Shown one piece after another: positions 13,877-52,896 of a stretch of DNA of 64,000 nt; the stretch's first letter is position 1, and each line of letters begins with the position of its first letter. The notes beneath the pieces were generated by a model. The model worked only from the letters and a program-made list of their open reading frames with translations, did no database searches and was not told where the DNA came from. The translations under genes were made by a program, and so were the position numbers. Origin of the DNA: a virus; the IMG/VR virus record IMGVR_UViG_3300022752_000019, positions 32,001-96,000 of that record, one strand, 5' to 3'.

Positions 13877-14949
13877 TTGGACTTTCCTCCTGGAGCCTTC
13901 TTAGGGTCCAATAAGCCAGACTTCTTGGCCGCAATCGCGCCCCCAACAAGTCCGACTCCAGCGACGGTCGAAAGAACCGGATGATCGCTAATTACCCGTC
14001 CGGCAGACTTTAACGCAGACGGGGAGATCTTACTGGCCGTCTTCTCTCCAAACAGCATAGAGGTCAGCGCACGATTCGCACCCTCAAGATCGTTCTCGAT
14101 CTCACCGAGTGCGATCTCAAGGTGAATGTGCCGCTCCTCAACCGCGGCGACCTTGGTAAACGCCGCCGGAAGAGGATGGTCCGGGTTGACGTCCCCATAC
14201 GATGCCGTCTTGGAGAGGTGCAGACCCGCAGTACGACCTTCCTTCGACAGAAGGTAAGCTGACAGATCGGACGCCACCTTTGTCGCAGTCTGCTGAGACG
14301 CGACACTCCAGTCCATGCCCGAGAAGCAGGCATGAAGTACGTCCTCAACAGCAATGCCATCTTTCACAGTGGCGTACGCAACCTTGGACAGCTCTCGGCG
14401 TGCGTGGAGGATCTCTCCCTCAGTCGACGCCAACTCCGCGCGAAGTGAGGCCGACGCCTCCTTCAGTGCGTCGTGGATTCGCTTCAAGTCGTGAAGACCC
14501 TGCGCCTGAGCAAACGGAGCACTGTGCTCGGTGTCTGCCTGCTTGATCACCTGGTCAAACGCATTCGCGGGCCTGAACTTGGGGGCACGAGGTGCTTCGG
14601 CTGAAGCAGTCTTTTCTGTCATAAGTCCACCAGCGAAAGAAGATGTACGCTTAGGCGCCGAAGCTACTTTTTCTGCGCGCAGAACTTCAGCCGCAACTTC
14701 CGCGTCCGGAGGATCGAACACGATGTACCGATCGGCGGAAGTACCCTCTTGCCTGTGCATTCGCTCGTATGTGTCGTGGTAGGTCATCTCGCAGATACGA
14801 CGAACATGCTCGGCTGTCAAGTTTGCGCCACACGCGTTTGCCTGCTTGACCACGGCCTCCGTCAGGGGCGTCCCGTTTGACAAGAAATCCGTGGTCGCCG
14901 CTTGCGCGAGACCCTGAAGGTATTCCTTGGTTACAGGATTTCCGAACAT
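13873..14949 (-). CDS. KxA-rich internal head protein (hypothetical)
   Basis: Likely start MFGNPV at 14949; the longer ORF would overlap the opposite HTH gene. About 9-10 KxA motifs; Gly-rich basic C-tail after the last EKTAS. Confidence 0.7.
   Translation of the reverse strand: MFGNPVTKEYLQGLAQAATTDFLSNGTPLTEAVVKQANACGANLTAEHVRRICEMTYHDTYERMHRQEGTSADRYIVFDPPDAEVAAEVLRAEKVASAPKRTSSFAGGLMTEKTASAEAPRAPKFRPANAFDQVIKQADTEHSAPFAQAQGLHDLKRIHDALKEASASLRAELASTEGEILHARRELSKVAYATVKDGIAVEDVLHACFSGMDWSVASQQTATKVASDLSAYLLSKEGRTAGLHLSKTASYGDVNPDHPLPAAFTKVAAVEERHIHLEIALGEIENDLEGANRALTSMLFGEKTASKISPSALKSAGRVISDHPVLSTVAGVGLVGGAIAAKKSGLLDPKKAPGGKSK
14618..14625 (+). promoter_or_regulatory. Candidate phage promoter motif GTCATAAG (inside antisense gene, ~340 nt before HTH gene)
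   Basis: Same motif as at the other plus-strand islands, but far from the start codon. Confidence 0.3.
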
Positions 14950-14967
14950 CGCCGACCCGGAGTGGAG

Positions 14968-15648
14968 ATGAAGTACACGATGAGTATAGCCGAGGCCGCA
15001 AGGTTTCTCGGCAAGACGGAACGAACCATCCGAAACTATATCAAGACGGCGCAACTTACAAGTGCCAGAAGAGGAAGATCTCGATTTCTCGACCCGGAAG
15101 AGGTCCAAGAATTGCTGGTCGAGGCAGACTCTTCTCGGGTAACCGCTGCCGAGATGCGCGCACTGCGTGCAACTGTACGCCGCCTCGAGGCACACGTCAG
15201 TGTCATTCAGCAAATGCTCGACCTCAAGAACGAGCCACTCGGAATGACTGACGAGTATGCACGAAGCCTACTGAGTGCTGCACTTGAGCAGTATGGTCGG
15301 CCGCACGGCAGCTACTCCATCAAAGAGCTCGAGGCGTGGGCAGGCATCTTTGCGCGCATGGATGAGTCGGACCTCCAGACACTCTGCGCCGCAACCTCGG
15401 CAACATCCTGGAAGCCCCTACTTCGCCTCAGTAGTCGAATGGTCTCTGAGGTTGCCGGCCGTGAAGACTACAAGACGTCACTTGAGGCGCAGCAAGTTCA
15501 TCGACTTCTGGCAGACGGCAGACGGAGGTTAAAAATCAGCATCTTCATCTACCTGGAGATGACGAGTCAGATCTTTTCAGAGATTGAAGAGACAGAGGTC
15601 AAGACCACGTTATTCGAGTCGCTAAAAAAACAGGTAAAACCGTCATAA
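14968..15648 (+). CDS. HTH (MerR/excisionase-like) DNA-binding protein with coiled coil
   Basis: MSIAEAARFLGKTERTIRNYIK...RFLDPEEV. Start at 14968 or the next Met. Confidence 0.75.
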   Translation: MKYTMSIAEAARFLGKTERTIRNYIKTAQLTSARRGRSRFLDPEEVQELLVEADSSRVTAAEMRALRATVRRLEAHVSVIQQMLDLKNEPLGMTDEYARSLLSAALEQYGRPHGSYSIKELEAWAGIFARMDESDLQTLCAATSATSWKPLLRLSSRMVSEVAGREDYKTSLEAQQVHRLLADGRRRLKISIFIYLEMTSQIFSEIEETEVKTTLFESLKKQVKPS

Positions 15649-15662
15649 CTACTTTGCGCACG
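15640..15662 (+). promoter_or_regulatory. Candidate phage promoter CCGTCATAACTACTTTGCGCACG
   Basis: 20/23 identical to 19195-19217; upstream A-tract; directly before a plus-strand gene. Confidence 0.6.
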
Positions 15663-15673
15663 GGAAGTGTAGC

Positions 15674-16132
15674 ATGAAGAAAACCCCCATTCGAAAGATG
15701 AAGCAACCGGTGGAAGCACCTGTCGCAGATGACGTGATTGAGCAGACACAAACAACGGAGAGTCGTACCGCCATGGCAAAGAAAGAGATGAACGCGTACA
15801 CCAGCTACAGCAACCTCATCGAAAACAAGATGGGCATCGGCCGCAACGGCAAGCGTGCGTTGCACGGGGGCATCGCTGCTGCGGGAACCTGGGCTGCTGG
15901 CCATTATGGCGGCGTCGGCATCATCGCTACCAACATGCCGACTGCGATTGGCATCGGGGCGGCAACGGGCTTCCTCGCCACTGTCGCCGCCGACAAGCTC
16001 TTCATCGACGACACGCAAGAGTTCCTGCTCGAGCTCTCTCGTGTCGAGTCCCTCAGCGAGGGCTCGAAGGATGCGCTGCGGGAGTGGGCGGCTTCGGACG
16101 AGGCCGCCAAGCTGTTCCGCAAGACCGGCTGA
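15674..16132 (+). CDS. Hypothetical membrane-associated protein
   Basis: Two Gly/Ala hydrophobic segments; alternative start at 15773 (MAKKEM, SD GGAG). Confidence 0.65.
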   Translation: MKKTPIRKMKQPVEAPVADDVIEQTQTTESRTAMAKKEMNAYTSYSNLIENKMGIGRNGKRALHGGIAAAGTWAAGHYGGVGIIATNMPTAIGIGAATGFLATVAADKLFIDDTQEFLLELSRVESLSEGSKDALREWAASDEAAKLFRKTG

Positions 16133-16138
16133 TTCGTC

Positions 16139-16172
16139 GACTGACGCCCTGGCTTCGGCCAGGGCGTCAGTC
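16139..16172. terminator. Perfect 15-bp hairpin with TTCG loop between convergent genes
   Basis: GACTGACGCCCTGGC-TTCG-GCCAGGGCGTCAGTC; no U-tract; contains the terminase stop codon. Confidence 0.6.
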
Positions 16173-19100
16173 CGTATCCAACTCTTTGTCAATTTTAGCA
16201 CTTGGAACGATGATGTCCGGCCTCGGATTGTCAATCATCGATACGACAAAGCAAAGCAGCAGCGCGTGAAAGCTGTCGTCTGTCGTATTGGGAGACTTCT
16301 TGTACTCCGTCATGCGCGTCCTCTCGTTGTACTCGGAGAAGATCGCAAGCATGTCAGAGCCAAAAGGACTACCAAACTCAGACCACTTCGGGAACCGGAA
16401 CACAGAGCGACGCTTGATGGCGTTGAACACCGCGCTCATGACTTCGGAACGATGAATCAAGAAGCGGCCCTTCGCCGAATCGAACTGCATGATCGTCTTT
16501 GGGGTCGAGTACTGATACCGGACGACTCGCTGTGATCCGTACAGCCTCAGCAGCTCATCGTTGGGCCAGTATCCTCCGCCGTAGTCCACTCCGACTCGAG
16601 TGACCTCAAAGGCCGCAAGAAGCTTCTTGATCTTCTCGATTTGCTGCTTCGGCTCTGCTTCTGCGCCAGAGAATCGGTGCGCAAAGATGATGCGAAAGAA
16701 CCCTTCGATGTACGCGCCGATCATCACGATCGTGTACGAGTTGTTTGAGTCCTGTCCCCAGTCAATCCCAGCGTACACCTGCTTGCCGCGAATTTTGGGC
16801 ATGATCTCTTTTAGCTTCTCTGCCTTAAACGAGAAGTCGGGATCACAGCAGGACTGGACATCGCCCTGAGTCAGCGGGCGCTGCCCGGAGTCAAAGCTTG
16901 CTCCCAGCACCTCGTTGTAGAACTTGGCTCGAGGGTATTGGTTGTACTTCGTGAGGATGTTGCTCCACTCAAGCCAGGGCACCATCAACTGCGGAATGCG
17001 GAAGCCCTCGAACACATCGAACTTTGGGTTCGGGTTTCCCGTGCGCACCCACTGGGCCATTGGATGATCTGGCCGAATGACCTCTCCGCACTTGTCGCAA
17101 GAGAGGCCACGGATGCCAATGTTTCGCTCCCCCAGGATGTTCCAGTGCCACGACCCGGGGTTGTTGGGCAGCCCGTGTCTCTCACACGGAACTGCCCACT
17201 CGTTCTGCGTAGAGTACGCGTCCCAGTAGACTTGGATCGAGTTGTCCAGGCTCTTTGGAGTGCCGCTATAGATGAACCACTTGAACGGGCTGTGAGAAGC
17301 TGCCTCCTCGATGACGGGGATGTTGTCCAGCAGCAAGTCCTGAAACTCGTCCATGCAGATCAGGTCTGCCGAGAGTCCGCGGCACCTGTCTGCATTGAGG
17401 AACGCATACCGAAGTTTGATCTCACTTCGGTTGATCGCCTTCTTCTCAAAGACGTTGTCCGTCAGATGCTGCGGGAACCAAGTCTTGAGGTCAGGGCAAG
17501 TCTCCAGCGGCTCCTTGAGGCGCGTCTTGGAAAACTCCTTGGTCTGTTGACTGGACGGAGAGACGTAGAGGATGCGGAAGTGCGGAATCAGACAAGCGTA
17601 AGAGAGCGTCTTGTTTCCCAGCGTGGTGCTGTTGTGCGTAAAGAGTGCTCCTGCAACAAAGTTGTGGTGTCCACGCACTGTCAGGTCAAAGCACCACTGC
17701 TCTCCTACATTCACAACCTCCTCAACTTCGTCCCAATAAATATCGGAGCGAAGATGAGCGCGAAGTAGGGCTACTTTCTCTGCGTCATACCGAACATCTC
17801 CCTCAAAAAAGACGACGAATTCTTCGAGCTTCTTCCGGGTAAGCGTGTACTTCGCCCGTGGGAGGCGCTCGATTCCGGCGGCACGCAAGGTTCTGTCGCC
17901 CTTCGTGGGCCGCACCGAGTTGTAGATGTCTCGGACAATGTGAGTCACCTCCTCCGGATACGTGTCACGATTGGAGTTGGTGTCCCAGTTGGCGAGGTCC
18001 TGTCGCTCAATCTTCCCCAGAGCGCCGATCTCACGCACAAACGCCCGGACCCCATCCTGAGTCTCCACACGAAGAATAAATGCGACCTTTTCTTCTCCGC
18101 GCCTCTTATAGATCGCGGGCCAGTTCTTTCGAATGGAAGACGGAATTCCGAACTTCCACAGCAGGGCCTGGATCTGTCGAATCATGGTGTGCGACATCGA
18201 GCAGTACTCGATGGACCACTTTGAGGTCGTGTCTTGCTTTACATGCCCATCAGTCGCCCATAGTCGATTCAAAAACAGCGCAGTCTGGGGGCGCGAGAGA
18301 TGAAAGACCCATTTCGGGATGAACTTGGTGTAGGAGGTCTTCCCCAGGAGGTCGTCTTCTTCAAACCAGTCGTAGAGCTTCTGGGCGCGGTACTTCGGAA
18401 GCCGGAGAGCTACTGCCTCTGTTCCCGGTTTGTCCGAAACACCGTAGGTCATCCCCTCCAGTGCCAACTCATTGATAAAGTCGGACAGTACTACATCTGT
18501 CGCGTTCGTGAACGACATTCCAGATGAAGAACAATGGCCGTCTCCGAGCATGAACGCCGTGAGCTTGACCCGAGAGTCTGGCTGCGCAGAATCGGCGAAC
18601 TCCCCCGCACGCCGCACGACTGCGATCCGGTCTCCTACGCGTACATTTCCCGCATCACGCCAACCACCCCATCTGCGGATGGGGTGGGTCGTTGCAAGCG
18701 TGGCCTCATGTCCTTGCCGGGTACGAACACGAACACAGGGCTTGCTGTATCGAGCCGACTTCCAGGTCACCTCAGACGAAGTGGCTAAGTGCCCACTCCC
18801 GAGCTCTACTCCCGGCGCCACCTCGTCAGTGTTGAGACAAACAAGGCGGTCCCCGGGCTGGACGTCCTTGATCGGAACGTGTTGGCCGGTCGAAAGGAGG
18901 ACAAGCTCGTCCTCGTGAACCGTTTTTTCCACCTGTCTTCCGCACATGAGAAGTACGCGCGGAGACTGAATGTCGTAGATCTGTCGAAGGTAACGGCGCT
19001 CTGCGAATGAGAAGTTCTCCAACTGCCGTGTATGTGGGTTGGGCATCATCATCGTCGTCTCGATGAACTGAGACGGCGTCAGAGGGATCTGCGCGTTGCG

Positions 19101-19187
19101 CAGATCCTGCTCGGAGATCTTTACTGTGTCTCCTCGTGGAGCGGCGTAGTCCCATGGACCTGCCAGGAGGGAGTTAGAAAAACTCAC
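16167..19187 (-). CDS. terL: Terminase large subunit, intein-interrupted
   Basis: Spliced Walker A GRQVEK|ST; Walker B ICMDE; SGTP coupling motif; nuclease YAGIDWG, GVDYGGG, TDDSFHA. Confidence 0.9.
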   Translation of the reverse strand: MSFSNSLLAGPWDYAAPRGDTVKISEQDLRNAQIPLTPSQFIETTMMMPNPHTRQLENFSFAERRYLRQIYDIQSPRVLLMCGRQVEKTVHEDELVLLSTGQHVPIKDVQPGDRLVCLNTDEVAPGVELGSGHLATSSEVTWKSARYSKPCVRVRTRQGHEATLATTHPIRRWGGWRDAGNVRVGDRIAVVRRAGEFADSAQPDSRVKLTAFMLGDGHCSSSGMSFTNATDVVLSDFINELALEGMTYGVSDKPGTEAVALRLPKYRAQKLYDWFEEDDLLGKTSYTKFIPKWVFHLSRPQTALFLNRLWATDGHVKQDTTSKWSIEYCSMSHTMIRQIQALLWKFGIPSSIRKNWPAIYKRRGEEKVAFILRVETQDGVRAFVREIGALGKIERQDLANWDTNSNRDTYPEEVTHIVRDIYNSVRPTKGDRTLRAAGIERLPRAKYTLTRKKLEEFVVFFEGDVRYDAEKVALLRAHLRSDIYWDEVEEVVNVGEQWCFDLTVRGHHNFVAGALFTHNSTTLGNKTLSYACLIPHFRILYVSPSSQQTKEFSKTRLKEPLETCPDLKTWFPQHLTDNVFEKKAINRSEIKLRYAFLNADRCRGLSADLICMDEFQDLLLDNIPVIEEAASHSPFKWFIYSGTPKSLDNSIQVYWDAYSTQNEWAVPCERHGLPNNPGSWHWNILGERNIGIRGLSCDKCGEVIRPDHPMAQWVRTGNPNPKFDVFEGFRIPQLMVPWLEWSNILTKYNQYPRAKFYNEVLGASFDSGQRPLTQGDVQSCCDPDFSFKAEKLKEIMPKIRGKQVYAGIDWGQDSNNSYTIVMIGAYIEGFFRIIFAHRFSGAEAEPKQQIEKIKKLLAAFEVTRVGVDYGGGYWPNDELLRLYGSQRVVRYQYSTPKTIMQFDSAKGRFLIHRSEVMSAVFNAIKRRSVFRFPKWSEFGSPFGSDMLAIFSEYNERTRMTEYKKSPNTTDDSFHALLLCFVVSMIDNPRPDIIVPSAKIDKELDTD
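17631..18923 (-). mobile_element. Intein with LAGLIDADG homing endonuclease (431 aa) in terminase Walker A
   Basis: Begins TVHEDELVLL..G...IKDV; has TTHP block B, FMLGDG and LWATDG endonuclease motifs; ends FDLTV..HHNFVAGALFTHN|S. Confidence 0.9.
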
Positions 19188-19194
19188 AGTTTCT

Positions 19195-19217
19195 CCGTCA
19201 TAAGAACTTTGCTCACG
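19195..19217 (+). promoter_or_regulatory. Candidate phage promoter CCGTCATAAGAACTTTGCTCACG
   Basis: Lies in the divergent gap between terL and the 19242 gene; near-identical to the 15640 site. Confidence 0.6.
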
Positions 19218-19241
19218 ATGAGCATAAGGGGGTTTCTTTCA

Positions 19242-19832
19242 ATGAGCAACCACAACACCGTTGTCGCCGGATATGAGGTCCGGCAGATCAGGGGCGAGCA
19301 GTCACTCGCCCTCGTTCTCCACGTCATGAACGTGGAGGACTTCACGAGCTGGACGACCATCCGGCTCGTCACGGAAGAGCCGCGCGAGATCGCGGCGTTC
19401 CTCGCGGCTCGCGCCGACAAGTTCGGCCAGAGCCTCCGCATCAGCGAGAGCGCGCGCCCGCTCAAGCTCAACATCAAAGGCAAGGAGACGGTCGGAAAGG
19501 TGGCGGGTCACTCGGTGACGTACGACACCTGGTTCGGCCTCCGCGCGTGGGTGTGGGTCGACATGGCTGGCGAAGGCGGGCAGGTTAACGTCCCGGCTCT
19601 CGTGACGGAGGTCGCCGCAGGCGAGATCCGAAAGGAAGCCGAGAAGACGGGATGCACCGTCGGCGATATACTCAAAGAGTACATCGCCGGTACGGTGCCC
19701 GAGCTTCAAACCCAATACAAGCTCCGGGACGTGTACCCGGTTATGCTTGATGGGCATGGCCGATACCACCTCGCCAACTTCACCCCCGAGCCTGCGGTGG
19801 GTTCCGCTGGCAGCGAAGAGCTTCCAGCGTAG
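19242..19832 (+). CDS. Hypothetical protein
   Basis: Start MSNHNT after AAGGGGG; high GC3 codon usage. Confidence 0.7.
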   Translation: MSNHNTVVAGYEVRQIRGEQSLALVLHVMNVEDFTSWTTIRLVTEEPREIAAFLAARADKFGQSLRISESARPLKLNIKGKETVGKVAGHSVTYDTWFGLRAWVWVDMAGEGGQVNVPALVTEVAAGEIRKEAEKTGCTVGDILKEYIAGTVPELQTQYKLRDVYPVMLDGHGRYHLANFTPEPAVGSAGSEELPA

Positions 19833-19845
19833 CCTCCTCGGAGAC

Positions 19846-21867: not shown

Positions 21868-21868
21868 C

Positions 21869-23374: not shown

Positions 23375-23385
23375 TGGAATTCCTG

Positions 23386-25643: not shown

Positions 25644-25655
25644 GCAGACCTCGTA

Positions 25656-27182: not shown

Positions 27183-27191
27183 GAGGGCCTC

Positions 27192-33100: not shown

Positions 33101-33551
33101 AGCCAACCTTGCTCCCTGCCGCGACGTTCCACTTTGCCAGAAGATCGCCGTTCTGCGCTTCGGCATGGTAGGCGCCAGGATTCAGCCGAAATACGCTGTC
33201 CAGCTGCATCTCGTTGCCGTTAACGATGTAGCTGTAGCGAGTTGTGATCTTGGGGATCTTTCCAAGCGTCCGGGGCTTCTCATCAAGAACTTTCCCGGTG
33301 GCCTTGTCGATCAGTCGGAACACTCCGACGATGTCTGGTCCCCATGTCCTGTCATTCAGCCGAGCTTCAAGCTGACTGTTGTAGTTTGCAGGATTGAACT
33401 GCGCCGCTCCGGACGCTGAGCTGTCCTCGACCTCGATGCGCACAAGCTCCAATCGGTGCTTGCTTCCCTCAATCGGAAAGTGAGACGAAATTGCCTCTTT
33501 CGTCTTCTGCACCAGGAGATTGTAGCTTTCAATCGGGTTCAAGTTGGACAT
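27192..33551 (-). CDS. rpoBC: Single-chain DNA-directed RNA polymerase, beta-beta' fusion
   Basis: beta motifs (GYNFEDG, GDKLSGRHGNKG, PSRMNPGQ, GGQRIG) precede beta' motifs (LGKRQDLSGRSVI, NADFDGD at 29328-29348, HGARKG, GEPITQMQMRTFHTGG) in one ORF. Confidence 0.97.
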   Translation of the reverse strand: MSNLNPIESYNLLVQKTKEAISSHFPIEGSKHRLELVRIEVEDSSASGAAQFNPANYNSQLEARLNDRTWGPDIVGVFRLIDKATGKVLDEKPRTLGKIPKITTRYSYIVNGNEMQLDSVFRLNPGAYHAEAQNGDLLAKWNVAAGSKVGSFDIYIERKDPKKLGLMTMDVKSSGSSTVQIPVYAVLSAMGVDDSKIRSALGDKIFEINRAKSSPTDILKFHKAIEARKEGENYKAPSVAEAAKFTKEVFEGAEVSPQTMKAAFGKEFDKITGEALLLSAKKLVDISRGDVPEDDRQSLSNKRLFGAEDYVYEELTKGKTVYALTRKIRNNVDRKTSIQDIIPASASGYGAAILKPFKAGQLPTQTNPLQFVSNHTRTTILGAEFGGIKGENVNLMEDKLINPSHLGLLDPLQTPESSHTGIILHVPLGAKKVGHDLHAQVVNVRTGKIEHKTAADLEHAVVAYPDQAKVERKPDGSVKVTPLASHVVVYDSDRNTSKRPWKEVDYILPSSKLLFAASANLIPFVQNDNGNRAMMAAKHQEQAVGLREREAPLVQTQASGGASYEDIVGATAAITSDADGKVIEVSKQRIVVEGDDKKRYTHALYENFPLNGAKHMLHSEPKVAVGDKVRRGQLLADSNFTKGGKLALGTNLRVAYIPYRGYNFEDGVVISESAAQKLISSHLHSAEAEMHPNVVVNKKMWRQYAGPVKATPEILQKLDDDGVIRVGQKVEPGDVLIAKLQKQVMSKDTEDIRRRLKGAIQDYTDAGVRWDHEYGGTVARVSNNGRKIAVFIRTEQTMEVGDKLSGRHGNKGIVTKILPDDKMPKDKDGNPVHVLLSPAGIPSRMNPGQVLETAVSKVALKTGKPFVINNFEPGTDYAALVKEELKKHKISDTDELFDPETGESLGQVLTGHQYILKLDHQAEKKISARAGGFGYAYKTTGEASQGSGLGEGGQRIGGLDTYTLLAHGAKQNLREMQTYKSDREQAEDVWTRIMRGERPPPPKVPRSMEQFTHYLRAMGVYTDRKGREYSLMPMTDKQTIAQSSGALAFPEKTLAAKGSLTKEERGGLFDKAKTGGLEGTKWTHMELGVRIPNPMFEEPIRLLLKMPKPEFQKLLTESGAVGRKSGFAIIEEKLRDIDVNKELKASEKELAEASENELNVAYKRVRYLRALKELGIKPVDAYTNKVLPVLPPSLRRVSIGFDGTQIIDPANKMYAIIGQMVKQLEQAEKEKMPIGEIQKVQAQIYETTKALRVTGMQMEGKQVPSLMDKMTGLRQPKQSFFQSGVLGKRQDLSGRSVITPDPEMPLDEVGVPREMAMEMYKPFVIKELWRNMGRATSPGEARMMIKKNHPAANEALERVVRDRPAMMKRDPALHLFSILAFRPRLIEGKSIKIHPLVTGGFNADFDGDTMALYVPITDAAVQEAKNMMPSKNLFSPTSGGLMVTPSQDSVLGIFQATEWGKPVSGEFTEEQAIQAVKAGKIKSYNVIKVKGLKKPTTAGRLMINATLPQQFKGDEDLLYDPSFRMAKGSMKRFATRVARAEPEEFSKMIDQWKTIGFNLAFKNGSSVSINDFHDGFKLRDEVLVKYKKEEDSILKGSGSKQQKDEKIIALYQKAQKELKQVGEARYNSRLDNRMWDWARSGAKGDWNQFGQMVMGPMLVQDPMNQTVPFAITKSFGEGLPVSQYYASLHGARKGTIDRASATAKPGALTKELINTVIDNTIKSKDCGTIRGALLSSMEADIEGRFLAGEVPLKGGEAIPKGTLITPQIRSKIKNDGPKKILVRSPLHCNEVKGICATCYGLSERGSLYPIGTNVGIIAGHALGEPITQMQMRTFHTGGVGGTSGVGDYFTAAEDLFKVPKKLKGAAVLSTVAGKVEKIENDALGGKIVTIDGKQHVVPFTSPLLPSIRVGVEVDKAEALSEGRKNPHDILAITKNMGAVRTHIADSLNELYVETTGNERRRNIETVIRAMTDLTRVDDPGDDHAYLRGQLVPMSEIERKNKELRSMNKREIKHTPQLKAMNKMPLAGQEDWMARLNFQRLEETYVEGAAQNWKSDIHGHPIAGIAHGAEFGLEPPGAVKLPNAPGVPDRMVNVPKATLPGKPAPTTPSERKTSGFLSFF

Positions 33552-33571
33552 TAAAAATGTCTCCGATAGAG

Positions 33572-33579
33572 GTCATAAG
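33572..33579 (+). promoter_or_regulatory. Candidate phage promoter motif GTCATAAG, overlapping minus-strand TATACT (33578-33583)
   Basis: In the divergent gap beside the RNAP start; upstream A-tract. Confidence 0.55.
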
Positions 33580-33617
33580 TATAACAGCCGGAGCATAACA
33601 CCGGCAAAGGAGATCAC

Positions 33618-33692
33618 ATGGGCAACTATTCCGGCCCCGACGAAGGAGCCTCAAATCCGTTCAAGGACACCGATCGCTTCGGCGATTGGTAA
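33618..33692 (+). CDS. 24-aa micro-ORF MGNYSGPDEGASNPFKDTDRFGDW
   Basis: Strong SD AAGGAGA, first ORF after the promoter motif. Confidence 0.45.
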   Translation: MGNYSGPDEGASNPFKDTDRFGDW

Positions 33693-33693
33693 G

Positions 33694-33780
33694 ATGGTGC
33701 TGTTTTTCTGGATGGCGGCGATCGTCGCCGCCATCCAATCGTCGAGTGACGTCCTCGAGGACGAGCTTGGCGAGGAGTAG
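33694..33780 (+). CDS. 28-aa micro-ORF MVLFFWMAAIVAAIQSSSDVLEDELGEE
   Basis: ATG 1 nt after the previous stop; hydrophobic N-half with an acidic tail. Confidence 0.35.
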   Translation: MVLFFWMAAIVAAIQSSSDVLEDELGEE

Positions 33781-33845
33781 ACGATTCGGGCGCCTCCGAG
33801 CCAGACTTCAGTCTGAGCTCGGAGGCTTGCCCTCGCGTCCTCACT
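33709..33845 (+). ncRNA. Putative structured RNA element (two strong hairpins)
   Basis: 13-bp perfect stem at 33709-33737; 15-bp bulged stem at 33792-33826 with extendable flanking pairing. Confidence 0.35.
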
Positions 33846-33925
33846 CTTCAGCACTTTTATTTAAGACGCAGGAAGAAGATACTCTAAAAGAGTACTGTCC
33901 TCTGATCGGCGAGAGGTGCGGAGTA

Positions 33926-34090
33926 ATGGAATGTCGAGGGTGCCCGGCCATCCCAGAAGGAAGATGGATGTGCTCTGTCTGCGCAAAGCCTCACAGTGTC
34001 CAGCCGTTCTGGACGTCGGGACACTGTGATGCCTGCGGCATAGAGTCAAGTTTCCTTTCCCTGGTGCCAGATGCTTCCCTTCGTATGTGA
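33926..34090 (+). CDS. Small Cys-rich (Zn-finger) protein
   Basis: CRGC, CSVC, CDAC; start uncertain. Confidence 0.5.
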   Translation: MECRGCPAIPEGRWMCSVCAKPHSVQPFWTSGHCDACGIESSFLSLVPDASLRM

Positions 34091-34325
34091 CCACTGTGGC
34101 GCAGAGGCCGCGAAAGACGACAAGATGATCAGCGTTGCTCGGCACCGTGTCGTTCGTCGTCCGCGAAAGTGGGACATCGAGGACGAGGCATTTGCCACGC
34201 TTGGAAGCGAGGCCATGTTTCATGAGCAGTGCTTCGTAGACAACGCGCGAGAGATCCTCGCCGCGCTCTACGAAGGTCTTCCGATCGAGCAGCCCAGGAA
34301 GAGACCGGCTTACCTCGTGCGATGA
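34071..34325 (+). CDS. Small Zn-finger-like protein
   Basis: CDHC...FHEQC. Confidence 0.55.
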   Translation: MLPFVCDHCGAEAAKDDKMISVARHRVVRRPRKWDIEDEAFATLGSEAMFHEQCFVDNAREILAALYEGLPIEQPRKRPAYLVR

Positions 34326-34327
34326 GG

Positions 34328-36394
34328 TCAGCCGATGGCTCTTCCTGGGTCTGCCTGCGGAGTTCCGTTAGGGGCTGGATTTTGCTGCGCGTTCAGCGGG
34401 TTGACCTGCGATCCCTTGTCATTCATTAGCTGAACAACCAGTTGATACAGCGGTGGGTTCTCAGTCTGCATCTGCTGAAGCGCCTGATACATTGCCTGCT
34501 CACCCTGTTCTTTCTTTAGCGTACGGAAGTACGCGACGGCGCGCTGAGCGACGTACCGCAGGTCTACTCCCCCTGAGCCCGGTTGAATCTGCGACTGAAC
34601 GCCTGCCATGGCAGCAGGCATGCCGGATTCGTTGGGAGCGCCTGCATTTTCTGCATAGGCAGTTGCGCCCTCTGGGAGCCCAGGAGTTTGCTGAGCAGCA
34701 TCGCCAGCCGGGGCCGCCTGCTGCTGTGCAGCGGCTTGCGCGGCGGCTTGCGTGGCGGCTTGCGCGGCGGCGGGGTCTTGTACTCCCATTTGCTGCTGGG
34801 CCTGCTGCATCTGCTGCTGCATCTCCATCTGCGCCTGACCCTGCGCCTTTAGCGTAAGGGCCTGTGCCTTCGCCTGGTAGCGTGAGGTACGAAGCTGCGC
34901 CTCTCCTTGAATGTCGGCAGAGGCAACCTGCATCTTGCGGTTGGCTTGGATCTGCTTCTTGATTTCGCGCCCCATGCGCTCAGATTCAAGATCGAAGTCC
35001 TCGCCCAGTTCCTCCATGAGGCGATGGTCGCTGATCTTCTGCGCTTGGTTGAGCTGGAGGTAGAACATGCTCCTTTGGAGGTCGTCGGCCATGCGGAACT
35101 TGTCGAACCGCGAAGAAACCCGCGGCCACTCCATGAATGCCGCAATCTTCTGCATAATGAAGACGTTGATTAGCTCATGGCGCTGCTTGTTGTAGCCGAG
35201 GAACATGTTCTCGAGCGCGCGGAGCGACGTGCTGGACCCGGACCATTGAAGTCCGCCGAAGATGAACTCCACCGGAATGCCTGCGCCTGCGAGCATCTGT
35301 TCGGCCAGGAGTCTCATCTCCTGGTACATCAGAAGGGCTCGCCCCTGGCCGCCGATCTGCTGGAACCCGATGTTGACAGGTAGGACCGGGATGTAGTTGT
35401 GATCCCGTTTCCACATGTTGATCTCTTCATCGACCCGACGCTTCCAGTTCGTCAGGTTGTAGGCCCCATAAGGCCCTTCATTACCTCCGGTGTTCTGTCC
35501 TGGGAAGATCATCCGCATCGGGACGATATTTTCCATAAGGATCGCTTCGTTCGCCTTCTTCATTACCTGAAGGTAGAACGCGTCCTTCAGGAGCGGGAAG
35601 ATGAGGGGTGTTCCCCAGCCCTGGTCCTTCTGCGCGATTGTCGGGCGCTTCAGGTGGTACAGGTTCTCCTCTGAGAAGAGGAGTGACTTGCCTGCGCGCG
35701 CGGCCTCGAGGAACTCAAGAGGCAGGCTCTCGATCTCGTCACAGTCCCCCATTTTGATGTCGTTGATCACGCTCTTGGGCAGGCGGAAGTAGTACTTCGT
35801 CTGCCCAGTGATCTCGTTGTGCTTGATGTCGATGTTTTCCGGGTTCCAGCGGACCAGTCGAATCTGCCGGAACGAGCGGATGTACACATCGTGCTGCTTG
35901 GCGTAGCCCTCGTGGCCGCAGTCGCACTTGTGCAGGTAGAAGCGAGAGTCGCGCCACTTGTAGCGAAAGCGGTTGGTCTTGGCACGATAGCGTGCCCCGC
36001 AGGAGCTACAGATCAGGTACTTCTCAAAGGGAAGGAACACGGAGACAAACGCGTTCCCGTACACGAAGTAGTCCAGGCCGACCTCGACCTGGAACGAACG
36101 TAGCTTGAGGTGGTCTTCGACCTTCTTGTAGAGCTTGATGACCTCTGGATCATCAGTCTCAAAGATCAGAGGCGTCACCGGATACTCGGCCATCTTTGAA
36201 CAGGCCGCGTTGATCACTGGATTGGTTAGGAAGTAGTACCGGCACCACTTGTGGAGTTCGTGCTGATTGGCCGGAAGAAACTGCTGGGAGATGTCAAAGA
36301 ACGGCGATGGGTAGCGGATGCCAAAGCCTCGCCCACCCTCGGCAGTAACGGGCCGAGGGTTGAAGCGGTTGACCTCGCTTGTGACGACGTTCAT
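34328..36394 (-). CDS. Portal protein
   Basis: NPVINAACSKMAEYP, DYFVYGNAF, and LYHLK...GWGTPLI portal-type motifs; Gln/Ala-rich C-tail. Confidence 0.8.
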   Translation of the reverse strand: MNVVTSEVNRFNPRPVTAEGGRGFGIRYPSPFFDISQQFLPANQHELHKWCRYYFLTNPVINAACSKMAEYPVTPLIFETDDPEVIKLYKKVEDHLKLRSFQVEVGLDYFVYGNAFVSVFLPFEKYLICSSCGARYRAKTNRFRYKWRDSRFYLHKCDCGHEGYAKQHDVYIRSFRQIRLVRWNPENIDIKHNEITGQTKYYFRLPKSVINDIKMGDCDEIESLPLEFLEAARAGKSLLFSEENLYHLKRPTIAQKDQGWGTPLIFPLLKDAFYLQVMKKANEAILMENIVPMRMIFPGQNTGGNEGPYGAYNLTNWKRRVDEEINMWKRDHNYIPVLPVNIGFQQIGGQGRALLMYQEMRLLAEQMLAGAGIPVEFIFGGLQWSGSSTSLRALENMFLGYNKQRHELINVFIMQKIAAFMEWPRVSSRFDKFRMADDLQRSMFYLQLNQAQKISDHRLMEELGEDFDLESERMGREIKKQIQANRKMQVASADIQGEAQLRTSRYQAKAQALTLKAQGQAQMEMQQQMQQAQQQMGVQDPAAAQAATQAAAQAAAQQQAAPAGDAAQQTPGLPEGATAYAENAGAPNESGMPAAMAGVQSQIQPGSGGVDLRYVAQRAVAYFRTLKKEQGEQAMYQALQQMQTENPPLYQLVVQLMNDKGSQVNPLNAQQNPAPNGTPQADPGRAIG

Positions 36395-38250
36395 GACTGA
36401 TTGTCCTTTTTCTGCCCGAACGAACTATCGAGCAAGTTTGCAGCGCCGCCAGCAATATCTGCGCCGATATTTTCAGCAGTCGTTCCAATTGCCATTCCGC
36501 CGACTGCCGGAACAATGCCTTTGGCACTGAAGCCTGATCTGCCCGTGTTGGTGAAGAGATTGGACTTACTGAGCCCGAGGTTTCGTCCGCCAAAAAGATG
36601 ACCCGTTGCCGACGCAGTGCCGGCAACTGCCAGTCCCCTTGCAAGTCTTTCTGCGGTACTTCTCTTCTTTCCGGTTTCTGGATCAACCTCCTCAGAGGCA
36701 GCACCGACTCCTCCCAGAACAGGCGCCGCAACTTCCATTACTCGCTCGCCCGGGCCGTAGTACCACATGCCGCGATTTGTTGTTGCAGTGCCTGCGGCAG
36801 CCTGTTCTTGAGCCCGCCTGCCTAAAGTCCGGTACATGCTCTCGATTTTTCCATAGTCAACATTTTGGCCAGCCTGCGCCGCAGAGTCCATTTCATCAAT
36901 TAAAGACCGCAGGCTCTTAGCGGAGTCTTCGTCAAACGCCACGTTTTGGTACTTTTGCCTTCCAGCACTAAGAAATCCTGACCGGCGCAGACTGTCCACG
37001 ATTCCTGGGGAGCCTTGTACCTCATCAAGGGCTTTAAACTGGTCAACTCTACCAACAAGTGGTTTGTTGGCCGCTGCTTGACTACGCAACGTCTCATCTA
37101 AGTTGCGCAAACTTTCCGACATAAGCTCTACTCGCTTAGACTGCGCAGCCCCTCGTGCAAACTCATCGGCTCCTTCTCCTACGTAGCTTGCACCGGTCCT
37201 TAGCCCACGACCCATTGACGTTATGGGCTTAGTTACGACCTCCTTAACTGTGGTCAAGAACTTACCGGCCCGGGCCGGGTTTCTCAGCAACGCGGCGCCG
37301 ATCAATCCCGCGCCGCCTACAGACACCGGATTAACGTGCTTCAAGATTGGAGACGATGGTTGTTTGCTCTGAGTCCCAGGGATCTGTACCTGATCATCAG
37401 GGTTTATAACGTTGTGTGCCGAAATAGCTTTTGGAACATCCGCAATTCCTGCCGTCTTTGTCGCCTGCAATGAAGCAGTGAACTCAAGCAGATCTCCGAT
37501 GCCCTCCATGAGCTTCGATGCGCAGATGTCGTCAGCAGTCTCTTTAAGCGTATGACCGCCGACCGACAGGGCGCGGACAAGCGCCTTCTGAACTCCCGCA
37601 GTCGGGAGTTTCGTGACGACTTTGACTTTGGAGCCGTTGAACTTCTTTTTTAGCTCCTCATCAGGTTCCATCTTCAGAAGGCTGTCGGTGTTGTAACGAT
37701 CGGTGCAGTAGCTACAGAGACCGTCTTCTTTTGGCTCTTCCTCGTTTCCGCACTCACCGCAGACCTGCGTGACCTTTGAGATCAGGGGGTTGAGGAACTC
37801 CAGCGGCTCAGGCACATACCAGATCCCGGACTCGTGAAGCTGCGCCGCCATGTATCGACGCACCTCCTCAGAGAACTCTGGGATGTCGCCGATCGTTCCA
37901 AGGTCCAATCTGATGCGATTCGCAGCATCCACTGCGAGCATTAGGTCGGAGACCGACTGATTGTCGATGTGAGATACGGACGGGATCTTTCCAACGAGCG
38001 CCTGGGAGACCGTGTGGAACGTCTCCCAGCTCGTCCAAAACTGATCGTGGTTGGCGACAGACACCGCCGCCATCAACTTGATCAGAACTACGCGCGGAAT
38101 GTTGATCTTGAGACGGCTCTCCACTGACCGCTTGATGACAAACGGCTCCCACTCCAACGCACCGACACCGAAGAGTCGGAGGTAGGATCGAAGAAGAAGA
38201 AGCGGGTGCGTCTTCTCATTCTTGAAGGTCTGAAGATCAGTAGCCTCCAT
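36391..38250 (-). CDS. Virion protein with Zn-ribbon N-half and lower-GC glycine-zipper extension
   Basis: Likely start MEATD at 38250; CGEC...CSYC; after TKTAG (37447-37458) the composition shifts. Confidence 0.7.
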   Translation of the reverse strand: MEATDLQTFKNEKTHPLLLLRSYLRLFGVGALEWEPFVIKRSVESRLKINIPRVVLIKLMAAVSVANHDQFWTSWETFHTVSQALVGKIPSVSHIDNQSVSDLMLAVDAANRIRLDLGTIGDIPEFSEEVRRYMAAQLHESGIWYVPEPLEFLNPLISKVTQVCGECGNEEEPKEDGLCSYCTDRYNTDSLLKMEPDEELKKKFNGSKVKVVTKLPTAGVQKALVRALSVGGHTLKETADDICASKLMEGIGDLLEFTASLQATKTAGIADVPKAISAHNVINPDDQVQIPGTQSKQPSSPILKHVNPVSVGGAGLIGAALLRNPARAGKFLTTVKEVVTKPITSMGRGLRTGASYVGEGADEFARGAAQSKRVELMSESLRNLDETLRSQAAANKPLVGRVDQFKALDEVQGSPGIVDSLRRSGFLSAGRQKYQNVAFDEDSAKSLRSLIDEMDSAAQAGQNVDYGKIESMYRTLGRRAQEQAAAGTATTNRGMWYYGPGERVMEVAAPVLGGVGAASEEVDPETGKKRSTAERLARGLAVAGTASATGHLFGGRNLGLSKSNLFTNTGRSGFSAKGIVPAVGGMAIGTTAENIGADIAGGAANLLDSSFGQKKDNQS

Positions 38251-39331
38251 TGTTCGTATCCCTGGACTGCGAGGCGAGCCGTGAGAGGAGGATCTGCTGC
38301 TCAAGAGGCATGCCCTTGAAAGTGCCTACCGGATCACGCCGGAATCGCTCAACTACGCTGTCCTCAAAGACATCTTCCAGTCCGGCGTGGCTTGCGGTGC
38401 TGCCCGAGTACCTCTTGAGCATCGACTCCGTAACGTAATCGCCTCCATGAATCCAGGAGTATTCCGCCTGTTTCTCTGTCCCGTAGACAGCCAGGACGGG
38501 GTCCGGGATGTTGTTGCCGTACCGATTCAGGAGCCCTGCCCTCTCATCCATGAGGAACAGCGTCTCCACGACATCATCGGGATCCATCGCCGCTGCCATC
38601 TTGGAAAGGCGAAGGTAGTCGCTCTGGTACTCTGGATTTGCCGTGTACTCCGCTCTCCGCGAAGCGACCTTCTCGAACCTGGGACTCAGCGTAGTCCCGC
38701 TGTAGCGGAAGATGTGATCCGGGACAACGGCGCCCACCGCACTTGCCAGCTTGACAACATCGACTGCGGCCTCATGACGATCGTAGGGATCCAGGTCGTC
38801 CCACTTGCGAATCGTCTCTGAGATCGCATCAAAGGCCGATGCCTGCTTGACCTGGTGGGCGCCAAGGGGCTGCGACATCCCCTTGCCCATCGGGCGGGCA
38901 ATCTGCGAGGGCTCGAAGGACGCAGTCTTGGCATATTGAGTGCTTGACGCGCTCTTCACCAGCACGCGACGTCCATCTCCCGGAAGGTTCTCGCCCTCGT
39001 TTGCCAGAAGGTACAGCGCGGGATGGGACTGAAGCCCGAGATCGTCAGCCGCGTTCAGTAGGTTTGCTGCGGCAACCTTGACGGCCCCGGCAGGGAGATC
39101 GTGCTCCGCGTTGAGCAGATACCACTGAGACAGGAAGGTGTTCCCGGCGTCGTGGCAGGCAAACTTCCTGTGCTCCTTGCCCTGGCTGTCGACGATGATG
39201 AGCGCAAAGTCCCGATCGTACAGGTCATCGCGCTCCTTCCAAGACGCCGTCTTGAGAAACTCAAGCCCGTCCTTCGGCCCAGAAGCGCGGAACAGATCGC
39301 AGAGGTCGTCGTGCTGGTCTACCACTGGCAT
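38237..39331 (-). CDS. KxA-rich virion protein (hypothetical)
   Basis: Likely start MPVVDQ at 39331; nine KxA motifs. Confidence 0.75.
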   Translation of the reverse strand: MPVVDQHDDLCDLFRASGPKDGLEFLKTASWKERDDLYDRDFALIIVDSQGKEHRKFACHDAGNTFLSQWYLLNAEHDLPAGAVKVAAANLLNAADDLGLQSHPALYLLANEGENLPGDGRRVLVKSASSTQYAKTASFEPSQIARPMGKGMSQPLGAHQVKQASAFDAISETIRKWDDLDPYDRHEAAVDVVKLASAVGAVVPDHIFRYSGTTLSPRFEKVASRRAEYTANPEYQSDYLRLSKMAAAMDPDDVVETLFLMDERAGLLNRYGNNIPDPVLAVYGTEKQAEYSWIHGGDYVTESMLKRYSGSTASHAGLEDVFEDSVVERFRRDPVGTFKGMPLEQQILLSRLASQSRDTNNGGY

Positions 39332-39365
39332 CTTTTTATCCCCTGAAAGGTCGAGTGCAGGTCTC

Positions 39366-39383
39366 ATTATACGCAGTCATAAG
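39366..39383. promoter_or_regulatory. Divergent promoter region: minus-strand TATAAT (39366-39371) and plus-strand GTCATAAG (39376-39383)
   Basis: Located at the switch between the structural and replication operons. Confidence 0.6.
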
Positions 39384-39414
39384 ACTTGTAGCACCCTACT
39401 GGAGGTTAGTGCAC

Positions 39415-39822
39415 ATGGGAGCTTTCTCCGATCGGTTTGACCACGAAGACAGCGGGTCATCGCGTCGCCCCGAGTGTTATGGCGACCCGGATTACTACGA
39501 TATCACGGACGAGAGATGCCGGCAGTGTCCGGTAAAGGGTACATGCCGTATCAAGGTTCAGTCATTGGAGCGAGAACAGCGGAGAGCAAGTGCGCCGACA
39601 ACAACGACGTACTCTCCGAGTACCACTCCGGGCTCCGCGTATCGTCCGTCAGTGAAGGCGAAGGTGTATGAGGAACCGGAAGCGGCGGACACATTCACAG
39701 GCGTCCTGGCCTACAACGCGGGTCTAAACGCGATCACGACGATGAGTGAAACGTTGACGGAGGCACTTGCAGGAATTCCTCGCAAGAAATACCCGTCTCT
39801 GAAGAGGAGAAAGGTGGAATGA
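39415..39822 (+). CDS. Cys-motif hypothetical protein
   Basis: SD GGAGG; CYG...CRQC...C. Confidence 0.7.
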   Translation: MGAFSDRFDHEDSGSSRRPECYGDPDYYDITDERCRQCPVKGTCRIKVQSLEREQRRASAPTTTTYSPSTTPGSAYRPSVKAKVYEEPEAADTFTGVLAYNAGLNAITTMSETLTEALAGIPRKKYPSLKRRKVE

Positions 39823-41192
39823 TCAGGCTGCCGATCTTGGAGGAAGGTAAGGCTTACCGAGGTCGGCATCTCTTTCTGCCGAAGACAAAGGTGAGCCGCG
39901 CGACGATGGAAGGGCTGCTCACTTTCGGAGACGACCCAAGCCGGGGAAGCCGAGGGCTTGTGGTCGAGCATCCGCATCACATCCAGGTGCCGAAGTACGC
40001 GCTCTCTGATGAGCAACTTGCCAAGCTCGGCTGTCCGCTTGTCGAAGAGCAGCGCGTCTACCCAAAGATCAACCTCTCCCGCAAGCCCACCTTTGATCTG
40101 CGGGACAATCAGCTCGAAGCGTGGGAGGCACTGAAGGCAGCAAAGAGGGGGATCTTGAACCTTGCCTGCGGGAAAGGCAAGACCGTCATGGGCTGGAACA
40201 AGGCTGCGCACGAGAAGGTGCCGACCCTCATCGTCAGCCCACAGCGCGCGCACCTGGACAACTGGATTGGAGAGCTTCGGCAGTTCTTTGACTACCCTGG
40301 AGAAGTCGGCTGGATTCAAGGGAAGCGGTTTGAATACGAGGCCGACATCTGTGTATCGACCGTTCAGACGTTGGCAGCACGGGCAGAGGAGGGCACTCTC
40401 CCGGCAGACTTCTACCAGCGATTCGGCCTGGTCATCTACGACGAGTGCCACATCATGGCTGCGGACTTCTTCTCGAAGGCCAGCAGCGTAGGCTCCGGCA
40501 TTCGTCTTGGGCTCACGGCAACCCCAACACGGACAGATCGTTGCGAAGGCATCTTCTACTCTCACCTGGGGCCCGTCTTCTACTCGGACATCAGTCAGGA
40601 CCTGACGCCGACGATCTTCGTCGTCGAGACTGGCGTGTTTTACAGAGAAGAAGAACAGAAGAAGATGCTGGACAAGACGGGGCAGCTAAACGTGGGGCGC
40701 TTGCACAAGACCCTTGCCGAAAACAAGGATCGCAACGCCGTCATTCAGGAAGTCATCGACGAGTGCCTCCGAAGGGGGCGAACAGTCTATGCACTCTCGC
40801 ATGGACCAGAGCACATCGAGGAGTTCCAGAAGGCCAACCCAGGCTCAACCGTGATTCACGGCGGAACGAAGTCAGAGGAGCGGCTGGGTCGCCTGAACGG
40901 CAGCAACTTGGTGTTCGCCTCCGTAGGCGTCGGAGCTGCCGCGTACAACCGCAAGGACCTGGACACCCTCATCCTGATGACGCCCTTCGCCGCGCGGTCT
41001 CACTCGGCGATCACATTCCAACAGAGCGTGGGTCGGATCCTGCGCGCGCTTCCCGGAAAGAAGGATCCATGGGTCTTTCTCATCATGGACAAGTCCGTCG
41101 ACGCATGCAAGGGGATGGTTCACTCCCTCATCCGTGAAAGTCAGCGTCGCGGATATCGTGTCATAACGAGATGGAACTGGAACGCAGTATAG
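39819..41192 (+). CDS. Superfamily 2 (DExH) helicase
   Basis: LACGKGKT, DECH, LTATP, QSVGRILR. Confidence 0.92.
   Translation: MIRLPILEEGKAYRGRHLFLPKTKVSRATMEGLLTFGDDPSRGSRGLVVEHPHHIQVPKYALSDEQLAKLGCPLVEEQRVYPKINLSRKPTFDLRDNQLEAWEALKAAKRGILNLACGKGKTVMGWNKAAHEKVPTLIVSPQRAHLDNWIGELRQFFDYPGEVGWIQGKRFEYEADICVSTVQTLAARAEEGTLPADFYQRFGLVIYDECHIMAADFFSKASSVGSGIRLGLTATPTRTDRCEGIFYSHLGPVFYSDISQDLTPTIFVVETGVFYREEEQKKMLDKTGQLNVGRLHKTLAENKDRNAVIQEVIDECLRRGRTVYALSHGPEHIEEFQKANPGSTVIHGGTKSEERLGRLNGSNLVFASVGVGAAAYNRKDLDTLILMTPFAARSHSAITFQQSVGRILRALPGKKDPWVFLIMDKSVDACKGMVHSLIRESQRRGYRVITRWNWNAV
41160..41167 (+). promoter_or_regulatory. Candidate internal promoter motif GTCATAAC
   Basis: About 35 nt upstream of the UDG start. 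Confidence 0.35.
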
Positions 41193-41200
41193 GAGATGCA

Positions 41201-47588: not shown

Positions 47589-47595
47589 TTCATCT

Positions 47596-47626: not shown

Positions 47627-47638
47627 GTGGAGAAGAAC

Positions 47639-52893: not shown

Positions 52894-52896
52894 AGC

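Follow-up and report, generated by a model that had tools for sequence, protein, structure and literature searches.

Does a phage that encodes its own RNA polymerase (RNAP) also possess promoters of its own, and which proteins would read them? The question is raised by a 64,000-nucleotide stretch of viral DNA, hereafter the window, that comprises bases 32001–96000 of a single IMG/VR virus record, IMGVR_UViG_3300022752_000019 (164,603 bp, 89% complete according to CheckV, GC content 58%). According to the gene calls, long runs of minus-strand genes are broken in this window by short plus-strand islands and by one plus-strand block of 16 kb. A first-pass annotation had noticed the heptamer GTCATAA in front of plus-strand genes and had proposed it as an early or middle promoter for the fused RNAP encoded in the same stretch. 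We find that a two-part motif, (T)AAAA-N14-GTCATAA(T/G), has GTCATAA as its core, and consider it reasonably likely that this motif is a promoter read by a sigma factor of the phage in conjunction with its single-chain polymerase.

An exact scan of the window recovered the six copies that had been listed by eye (14618, 15642, 19197, 33572, 39376 and 41160), all of them on the plus strand, and the suspicion that the minus strand is free of the heptamer proved correct (0 copies). Six copies against 2.73 expected, a number reached in 5 of 100 shuffles, represent a marginal excess when the window is taken alone. Across the whole genome, the distribution is clearly non-random: 23 of the 26 exact copies are found on the plus strand and three on the minus strand, despite the fact that plus-strand genes make up only 36% of the coding DNA, and the three minus-strand copies are each located upstream of minus-strand genes. 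Seventeen of the 26 lie inside, or at most 10 nucleotides (nt) from, the larger intergenic gaps, in a genome with 7.5% non-coding DNA. GTCATAA is the most strand-asymmetric 7-mer of the entire genome and shares first place among the 7-mers of its intergenic DNA with an A/T-run 7-mer. Taken together, count, strand bias and intergenic placement show that the heptamer is not there by chance.

When 23 non-coding sites picked solely by GTCATA[ATG] were aligned on this core, A was found at positions −18 to −15, counting from the G of the core, in 16–19 of the 23 sites, compared with a background of 21%, and T was frequent at −20. As the sites had been selected by the core only, the A-tract constitutes an independent second element. 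Downstream of the core, an A is conserved at +9 and T-A/G-G at +14 to +16, the latter being compatible with a predicted transcription start 6–8 nt after the −10 element. A position weight matrix (PWM) spanning −22 to +9 of the core retrieved 33 genome matches of at least 12 bits, compared with 0.8 in simulated genomes; 20 of the 33 were training sites and 13 were new. Twenty-five of these matches are intergenic, 25 have the start of a gene on the same strand within 200 nt (13% for random positions), and the distance from motif to start codon amounts to 23–65 nt at most sites.

If transcription starts about 14 nt after the G of the core, as predicted and as assumed in the numbering used from here on, T-w-A-A-A-A falls at −34 to −29, a G at −14 and CATAAK at −12 to −7. 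This would be the geometry of a sigma-70-family promoter with an extended −10 element, written in a private sequence. The spacer is fixed in length and free in sequence, as expected for a bipartite promoter of this family, and orientation and placement upstream of the genes served agree with it as well. A sigma-70 scanner read several strong sites as T(T/A)nAAA-17-CATAAT, with 9 of 12 positions matching and a hexamer spacing of 17 bp. The statement in the first-pass annotation that the motif is not a sigma70 consensus therefore stands for the sequence and falls for the geometry; the exact −35-like element had been overlooked, as had the sigma factor described below. Structure in the predicted 5′ ends of the transcripts begins at motif positions 14–17 in 18 of 26 sites, but since 61% of random 50-mers behave in the same way (p = 0.26), it carries no weight as evidence.

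Three sites in the window carry both elements, and each of the three precedes a start codon that has a good ribosome-binding site. The first (15622–15657, plus strand; 24.4 bits) has its A-tract at 15624–15630, its core at 15642–15648 and a predicted start at about 15656; the TAA of the core doubles as the stop codon of a helix-turn-helix (HTH) gene (14968–15648), and the ATG of the gene 15674–16132 follows after 32 nt. The second (19177–19212, plus strand; 26.7 bits; A-tract 19178–19182, core 19197–19203) occupies a divergent gap beside the start of the minus-strand terminase gene at 19187, 45 nt in front of the ATG at 19242, and its predicted start at about 19211 falls at the foot of a hairpin, GCTCA-CGA-TGAGC. 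The third (33552–33587, plus strand; TAAAAAT at 33552–33558, core 33572–33578, predicted start about 33586) is the best of the three with 29.0 bits; it abuts the start codon of the minus-strand RNAP gene at 33551 and lies 46 nt upstream of an ATG at 33618. Two earlier observations hold true in this set, namely that the first two sites (15640 and 19195) are identical at 20 of 23 positions and that three sites (15642, 19197 and 33572) are preceded by an A-tract, with A at the four positions −18 to −15 as counted from the G of the core. The base after the core is G or C in all window copies, which also had been seen correctly.

The fourth site, at 39376–39391 on the plus strand, has the core only (GTCATAAG....TAGCAC), and the missing A-tract brings its score to below 8 bits. 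It is found in the divergent gap between the minus-strand gene 38237–39367 and a plus-strand replication module, 39 nt upstream of the ATG at 39415. GTCATAA is invariant here in all six clades compared, the flanks are variable, and a conserved TGCAG at −20 to −16, counted from the core, fills the place of the A-tract. This pattern suggests that 39376 is probably a promoter, though of a deviant class in which the upstream part is non-canonical. The replication module itself (39415–55236, plus strand), as defined by Pfam and gene calls, encodes a helicase, UDG, a DnaB with an intein, a primase, DNA polymerase A, a RecA-like protein and a nuclease.

The two remaining copies are probably coincidental and can be explained by codons. 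The copy at 14618–14624 on the plus strand lies antisense within the minus-strand gene 13873–14949, lacks an A-tract, scores below 8 bits and is 350 nt away from the next plus-strand gene; it is the reverse complement of codons for Leu-Met-Thr in a protein that is conserved across this point (..MTEK[TI]A.. in translations from the window and two relatives). The copy at 41160–41166 (plus strand, no A-tract) coincides with codons for Val-Ile-Thr at the 3′ end of the helicase gene. Relatives encode this Val by GTC, GTG or GTA, which are synonymous, and the C of the core is therefore not maintained at the DNA level. Two copies in coding sequence correspond approximately to the number predicted by chance (2.7 expected). 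Of the six copies proposed as a promoter set, we thus retain the four at island heads. The claim that GTCATAA precedes every plus-strand island is correct in so far as these four copies head the four plus-strand islands of the window, and needs a correction for the first island, where the copy at 15642 precedes the second gene only.

Conservation was assessed in 11 IMG/VR contigs that encode the same single-chain polymerase (72–87% identical RNAP, GC content 51–63%). The site upstream of the polymerase gene is present in all 11. An alignment at this position shows conservation of the A-tract and of GTCATAAGTAT, with a 14-nt spacer that differs in sequence between relatives but is constant in length to within 1 nt; the clade with 63% GC carries GCCATAAG instead. 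The terminase-side site is kept in every relative whose contig reaches that far (L010, L011, L013, L014, L016 and L017, at 15.9–23.2 bits), and sites orthologous to 15642 score 23.3 bits in G001 and 24.4 bits in L011. In a relative of 131 kb, GGCATAATAaTAGTAG occurs in an early-like cluster, and G[TC]CATAA, present 15 times, is confined to one strand. From the variants seen in relatives, we derive G-N-C-ATAA-K as the family-level core; the C at −12 never varies, either in this phage or in its close relatives. The transcript predicted for the 33572 site may in addition begin with a conserved hairpin, for which the alignment provides modest support: the stem GCCGG...CCGGC (33587–33605, plus strand) is kept through a C-G to T-A double change in the clade of L015 and is longer in L016 and L013. 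It is followed by a ribosome-binding site, AAAGGAG, and by a micro-ORF (open reading frame) of 24 codons (33618–33692, plus strand), the first frame downstream of this promoter; relatives retain both the ribosome-binding site and the ATG of this ORF. The island as a whole (33618–34325, plus strand) comprises this acidic micro-ORF, a Cys-rich, zinc-ribbon-like small ORF and an ORF of 84 amino acids (aa), none of which matches a known family.

The strongest version of the motif, GTCATAATAtAGTAG, is clustered outside the window. Fourteen sites of at least 16 bits have T after the core, and 12 of the 14 fall between 147 and 160 kb of the genome, where they read GTCATAAT or GTCATATT, followed by A.TAGTAG. 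Most of the strong sites are preceded by a GC-rich, terminator-like hairpin and followed by a small ORF or an apparently non-coding stretch, and we infer that the region of 147–160 kb is an early-looking one. Searched with the strong-class pattern AAAA-N11-TAGGTCATAATA, IMG/VR yielded 38 single matches on unrelated AT-rich contigs, approximately the level of chance. The stretches between terminator hairpins and strong promoters in the same part of the genome (145–159 kb) repeatedly contain the words TTTTAGCT(T/G)G and CCTATCA, 11 of the 14 copies of CCTATCA being intergenic.

Which proteins of the phage are available to read such an element? The RNAP gene (27192–33551, minus strand) encodes a single chain of 2119 aa that joins beta and beta′ (Pfam Rpb2_6 with E 5e-63, Rpb2_7, Rpb1_2, Rpb1_3 and Rpb1_5). 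It is one open frame in 11 relatives, and its catalytic motif NADFDGD (residues 1402–1408) is invariant in eight sequences. Outside the window, at 113885–114718 of the genome on the minus strand, the phage encodes a sigma-70-family protein of 277 aa. Genome searches with PF04542, PF04545, TIGR02937 and PF01000 detected this one sigma factor and no alpha subunit. Region 3 is recognized by Pfam above its cut-off (40.3 bits), regions 2–4 can be aligned to models of SigA, RpoS and FliA, and the protein is 61–72% identical in four of five relatives searched; one conserved gene thus provides a potential cognate sigma factor. RpoD, FliA/WhiG and SigB/F/G models give about equal scores, all far below cut-off, and the best relatives in the PDB are SigA and RpoS (E 6e-10; 1e-3 for FliA). 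We also tried the sigma factor as a member of the sigma-28 (FliA/WhiG) family and rejected it, as TIGR02479 reaches 44.8 bits with a cut-off of 189.6 and RpoD/SigA models do equally well or better. A label "sigma-28-like" is not supported because both the family scores and the PDB matches favor SigA/RpoS. The present analysis accordingly drops a sigma-28 assignment, in addition to separating real from chance copies of the motif and contributing evidence from conservation and from the cultured phage Arash.

Structure prediction is consistent with an interaction of the two proteins. The complex of the sigma factor with RNAP residues 1040–1640 received a score of 0.64, compared with 0.00 for the best of three controls; this mark is reached by 58 of 80 solved complexes and by 2 of 110 mismatched pairs, and may nevertheless reflect likeness only rather than binding because sigma–core complexes have already been solved. 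Agreement between the runs extends to at least 63% of contacts, the partner has a predicted local distance difference test (pLDDT) value of at least 69, and the model seats sigma residues 54–97 on the coiled coil of the RNAP (1203–1247).

The genes for both proteins reside in late-looking operons. PHROGs annotation of ten minus-strand proteins around the RNAP gene found almost nothing, and a protein of 1984 aa and two proteins of 637–688 aa (55270–61224 and 34328–38304, both minus strand) match no Pfam or PHROGs family except for a weak PT-TG match. On the minus strand, TATAnT-like boxes are positioned back to back with the plus-strand motif or overlap it (window 39330–39400 and 33552–33600). 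The box in front of the minus-strand gene 38237–39367 reads GCGTATAAT, with TATACT, TATATT or TATGAT in relatives, and that in front of the RNAP gene reads TGTTATACT. These boxes may represent a second promoter class for minus-strand operons. An analysis of k-mer asymmetry across the genome gave no minus-strand-specific motif for the virion operons, and the TATAnT boxes, which are loose, were found by eye.

Neither of the bacterial promoter classes that come closest matches the motif. The consensus of the sigma-28/FliA class, TAAA-N15-GCCGATAA, shares with it a short A-rich −35 element (T-A-A-A), the register to within 1 nt and a −10 element that begins with G and ends with ATAA. It differs in that the CG of GCCGATAA (CGA core) is replaced by GTC, leaving only G and ATAA as coinciding positions, so the motif does not belong to this class, just as the phage sigma factor does not belong to the FliA/WhiG family. 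The extended −10 promoters of housekeeping sigma-70/SigA (TTGACA-N17-TGnTATAAT) have in common with it the 17-bp spacing, A-11, T-10, A-9, A-8 and G-14, and in the strongest class T-7 as well. They are set apart by an invariant C instead of T at −12, by an A-tract in place of TTGACA and, in every copy of the window, by G or C at −7. The combination of T-12 and T-7 is never seen, with C-12 throughout and T-7 confined to the strong class, and T-w-A-A-A-A matches TTGACA at no more than 4 of 6 positions, although this is the general consensus and may not be that of the host. The G and C of TTGACA are missing from the −35-like tract across more than 30 sites.

Phages with multisubunit polymerases offer a second comparison. 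In jumbo phages of the phiKZ/AR9 type, an AT-rich motif near −10 upstream of early operons was found bioinformatically in each phage and is read by a multisubunit RNAP delivered with the virion (PMC7598289). The phage studied here resembles them in having a conserved AT-rich motif centered near −10 upstream of early-looking operons and differs from them in its −35-like element, which their promoters lack. Their polymerases consist of 4–5 divergent subunits and work without a sigma-70-family factor (PMC7824862), whereas the polymerase of this phage is a single chain that closely resembles bacterial beta/beta′ (Pfam E 5e-63) and is accompanied by a recognizable sigma factor. According to reviews, phages with multisubunit polymerases of their own lack sigma factors, and phage sigma factors go together with dependence on the host core (PMC7824862, PMC7598289). 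A search of the literature found no described phage with a fused beta–beta′ polymerase and a sigma factor.

The closest cultured counterparts come from the sigma factor itself. Only ten of 50,697 phage records match it; the best match is gp10 of Salmonella phage Arash, its orthologue, and the next-best E-values belong to Vibrio phages D69, D181 and D148. The same four phages also hold the best full-length matches to the RNAP among these records. As the best homologues of both proteins sit in the same phages, sigma factor and polymerase appear to be inherited together, even though identity between the Arash group and this phage is only about 28–30%. In Arash virions, mass spectrometry identified the beta subunit gp206 as the most abundant protein and detected beta′ (gp216) and the sigma factor gp10 (PMC10585845). 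The two genomes are organized alike, with one strand carrying the structural genes and the other the small genes, tRNAs and early/metabolism genes, the sigma gene among structural genes and the RNAP gene near head genes. Arash differs in having separate genes for beta and beta′ and a second sigma factor, gp196, instead of one fused polymerase and one detectable sigma factor.

Arash possesses a comparable motif: 40 of 41 copies of GGTATAA in its genome lie on the early/middle strand and one on the other. The consensus consists of a TCCAATAA-like element, about 13 nt and tGGTATAAGtAAaGTGTAA, 30–40 nt upstream of start codons. Arash thus shares a strand-specific G-N-Y-ATAA-K motif at this distance from start codons and deviates in its sequence, with the core GGTATAAG and TCCAATAA upstream instead of GTCATAA and an A-tract. 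Judging from these likenesses, we regard it as a candidate promoter and the counterpart of GTCATAA. Compared with the Salmonella sigma-70 consensus, it has G instead of T at −7 and a different −35 region without TTGACA. The Arash paper makes no mention of promoters (PMC10585845), and no description of promoters of the Arash group was found in the literature searched. In the first 100 kb of Vibrio phage D69, k-mer asymmetry did not reveal an analogous strand-specific motif. In many plus-strand structural operons of Arash, (C)TAAAATA occurs about 30–40 nt before the ATG (gp39, gp185, gp204, gp212, gp216, gp218 and gp241); it recalls T4's TATAAATA and may act as a late promoter.

What do these data imply for the reading of the motif? 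Architecture, placement and orientation, and conservation all indicate that GTCATAA very probably belongs to a promoter, in agreement with this part of the original proposal. An early or middle timing fits as well, as the window copies stand in front of the replication module and of small plus-strand islands, and the strongest ones, outside the window, in front of early-looking cassettes. That the motif is read through the phage sigma factor appears probable to us, and, with somewhat less assurance, we favor the fused polymerase of the phage as the core enzyme. The fused-RNAP part of the original proposal is plausible on the basis of the model that places the sigma factor on the coiled coil, of the co-occurrence of the two proteins in distant relatives and of the presence of both in Arash virions.

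Several points weigh against this combination. CATAAT of the strong sites is one base off TATAAT at canonical 17-bp spacing, and the housekeeping holoenzyme of the host could read them for that reason. The copies in the window end in G or C instead of T and 39376 has no A-tract, so a further factor may be required at these copies. The inclusion of training sites makes the PWM statistics circular in part. As for the sigma factor, its region 4 stays below the Pfam cut-off (21.2 versus 24.1 bits), region 2 is not recognized by Pfam, with NCBIfam models aligning from about residue 94, and the predicted complex cannot separate a phage core from a host core. Its gene is located deep in a minus-strand virion operon without a promoter of the GTCATAA type, and the model therefore requires that the protein be packaged; packaging, in turn, rests on Arash, a distant relative (about 28–30% identity).

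The alternative that survives best, though we consider it unlikely, is that a host holoenzyme alone reads the motif, either as a housekeeping extended −10-like promoter or through a host sigma factor of the sigma-28 type, and that the polymerase and sigma factor of the phage take over later. Most phages begin infection using the host polymerase, and the late-looking operons that house the sigma and RNAP genes would be in line with such an order of events. CATAAT agrees with TATAAT at five of six positions and is accompanied by G-14 and a 17-bp spacing, and the layout is similar to that of FliA-class TAAA-N15-GCCGATAA. This explanation has difficulty with the invariant C-12, with the lack of the G and C of TTGACA from the −35 tract at more than 30 sites, with G or C at −7 in the window sites and with the maintenance of one and the same motif across relatives of 51–63% GC. 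It is further weakened by Arash, where the consensus of the host is known and the motif has G at −7 and no TTGACA, while polymerase and sigma factor are present in the virion.

Slightly less probable still is a division of labor in which the phage sigma factor reads the motif on the core RNA polymerase of the host and the fused polymerase serves other genes, for example the minus-strand virion operons. Such appropriation of the host core by a phage sigma factor would be as in SPO1 or for the late genes of T4. With regions 3 and 4 of the ordinary kind and a weak alignment to SigA/RpoS, the protein could fit a bacterial core; the TATAnT-like boxes of the minus-strand operons would allow two enzymes to share the work. 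Sigma factors that redirect the host core are, moreover, common among phages that lack a polymerase of their own (PMC7598289, PMC7824862). What speaks for the phage core instead is that sigma factor and polymerase are inherited together across distant relatives, that Arash virions contain both, and that the phage polymerase keeps the coiled coil on which the sigma factor is modelled (score 0.64, possibly likeness only). Finally, a role of the motif as a binding site for a phage regulator, such as the HTH protein 14968–15648, or as another cis element is very improbable: a HTH_17/MerR-like protein is indeed encoded in the first plus-strand island and the 39376 site has no upstream element, but two elements at fixed spacing, an orientation that strictly matches the downstream gene, a start codon 23–65 nt away at most sites and a position directly 3′ of terminator hairpins in the early-looking region are features of promoters and disfavor it.

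We therefore return to a promoter read by the phage sigma factor on the phage polymerase, for which the following mechanism can be envisaged. Bound to the single-chain beta–beta′ polymerase (window 27192–33551), the sigma factor would recognize CATAAK through its region 2, G-14 through region 3 and the A-tract through region 4. Promoters of this type would drive the plus-strand genes, that is, the three small islands of the window, the replication module and the dense, early-looking cassettes with GTCATAATAtAGTAG outside the window. By analogy with Arash, and given that both genes are part of minus-strand operons, polymerase and sigma factor would probably be made late, packaged in the virion and injected, and early transcription would as a consequence be independent of the host enzyme. 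A more far-reaching version, which we put forward tentatively and on balance slightly doubt, is that the capsid of this lineage carries a complete bacterial-type initiation system, consisting of a single-chain beta–beta′ polymerase without alpha and its own sigma factor, with a private code, TAAAA-N14-G-N-C-ATAA-K, variants of which set the timing in a host-independent early and middle program. T at −7 together with a full −35 tract would then denote early cassettes, and G or C at −7, or an absent −35 tract, would denote the middle/replication genes of the window.

Some features in the vicinity of these promoters deserve mention in their own right. The HTH protein 14968–15648 (plus strand), first gene of the first plus-strand island, is HTH_17/MerR-like with a weak sigma region-4-like match and is a candidate regulator; its gene is only 18 nt away from the divergent minus-strand gene. 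For the UDG gene called at 41171–41914 (plus strand), the start is probably 41201 rather than 41171: relatives conserve a ribosome-binding site and ATGATTGG at 41201, and the stop codon TAG of the helicase gene is found immediately before. The large terminase (16167–19187, minus strand) and the DnaB-like helicase (42900–45545, plus strand) both contain inteins with a LAGLIDADG homing-endonuclease domain.

Reviews distinguish two strategies, in which phages either possess split polymerases of their own and no sigma factor or redirect the host core by means of sigma factors (PMC7598289, PMC7824862). A group of phages with a bacterial-type polymerase, a sigma factor and a classical −35/−10 layout of private sequence falls between the two, and the Arash group, distant kin of the phage described here, does have both a multisubunit polymerase and a sigma factor. 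The system would yield a compact orthogonal set of polymerase, sigma factor and promoter for study and use. It would also offer a testable case of drift in sigma specificity, with C versus T at −12 and G versus T at −7 in this phage and Arash, and it would provide a promoter map that makes the expression program of an uncultured 165-kb phage readable.

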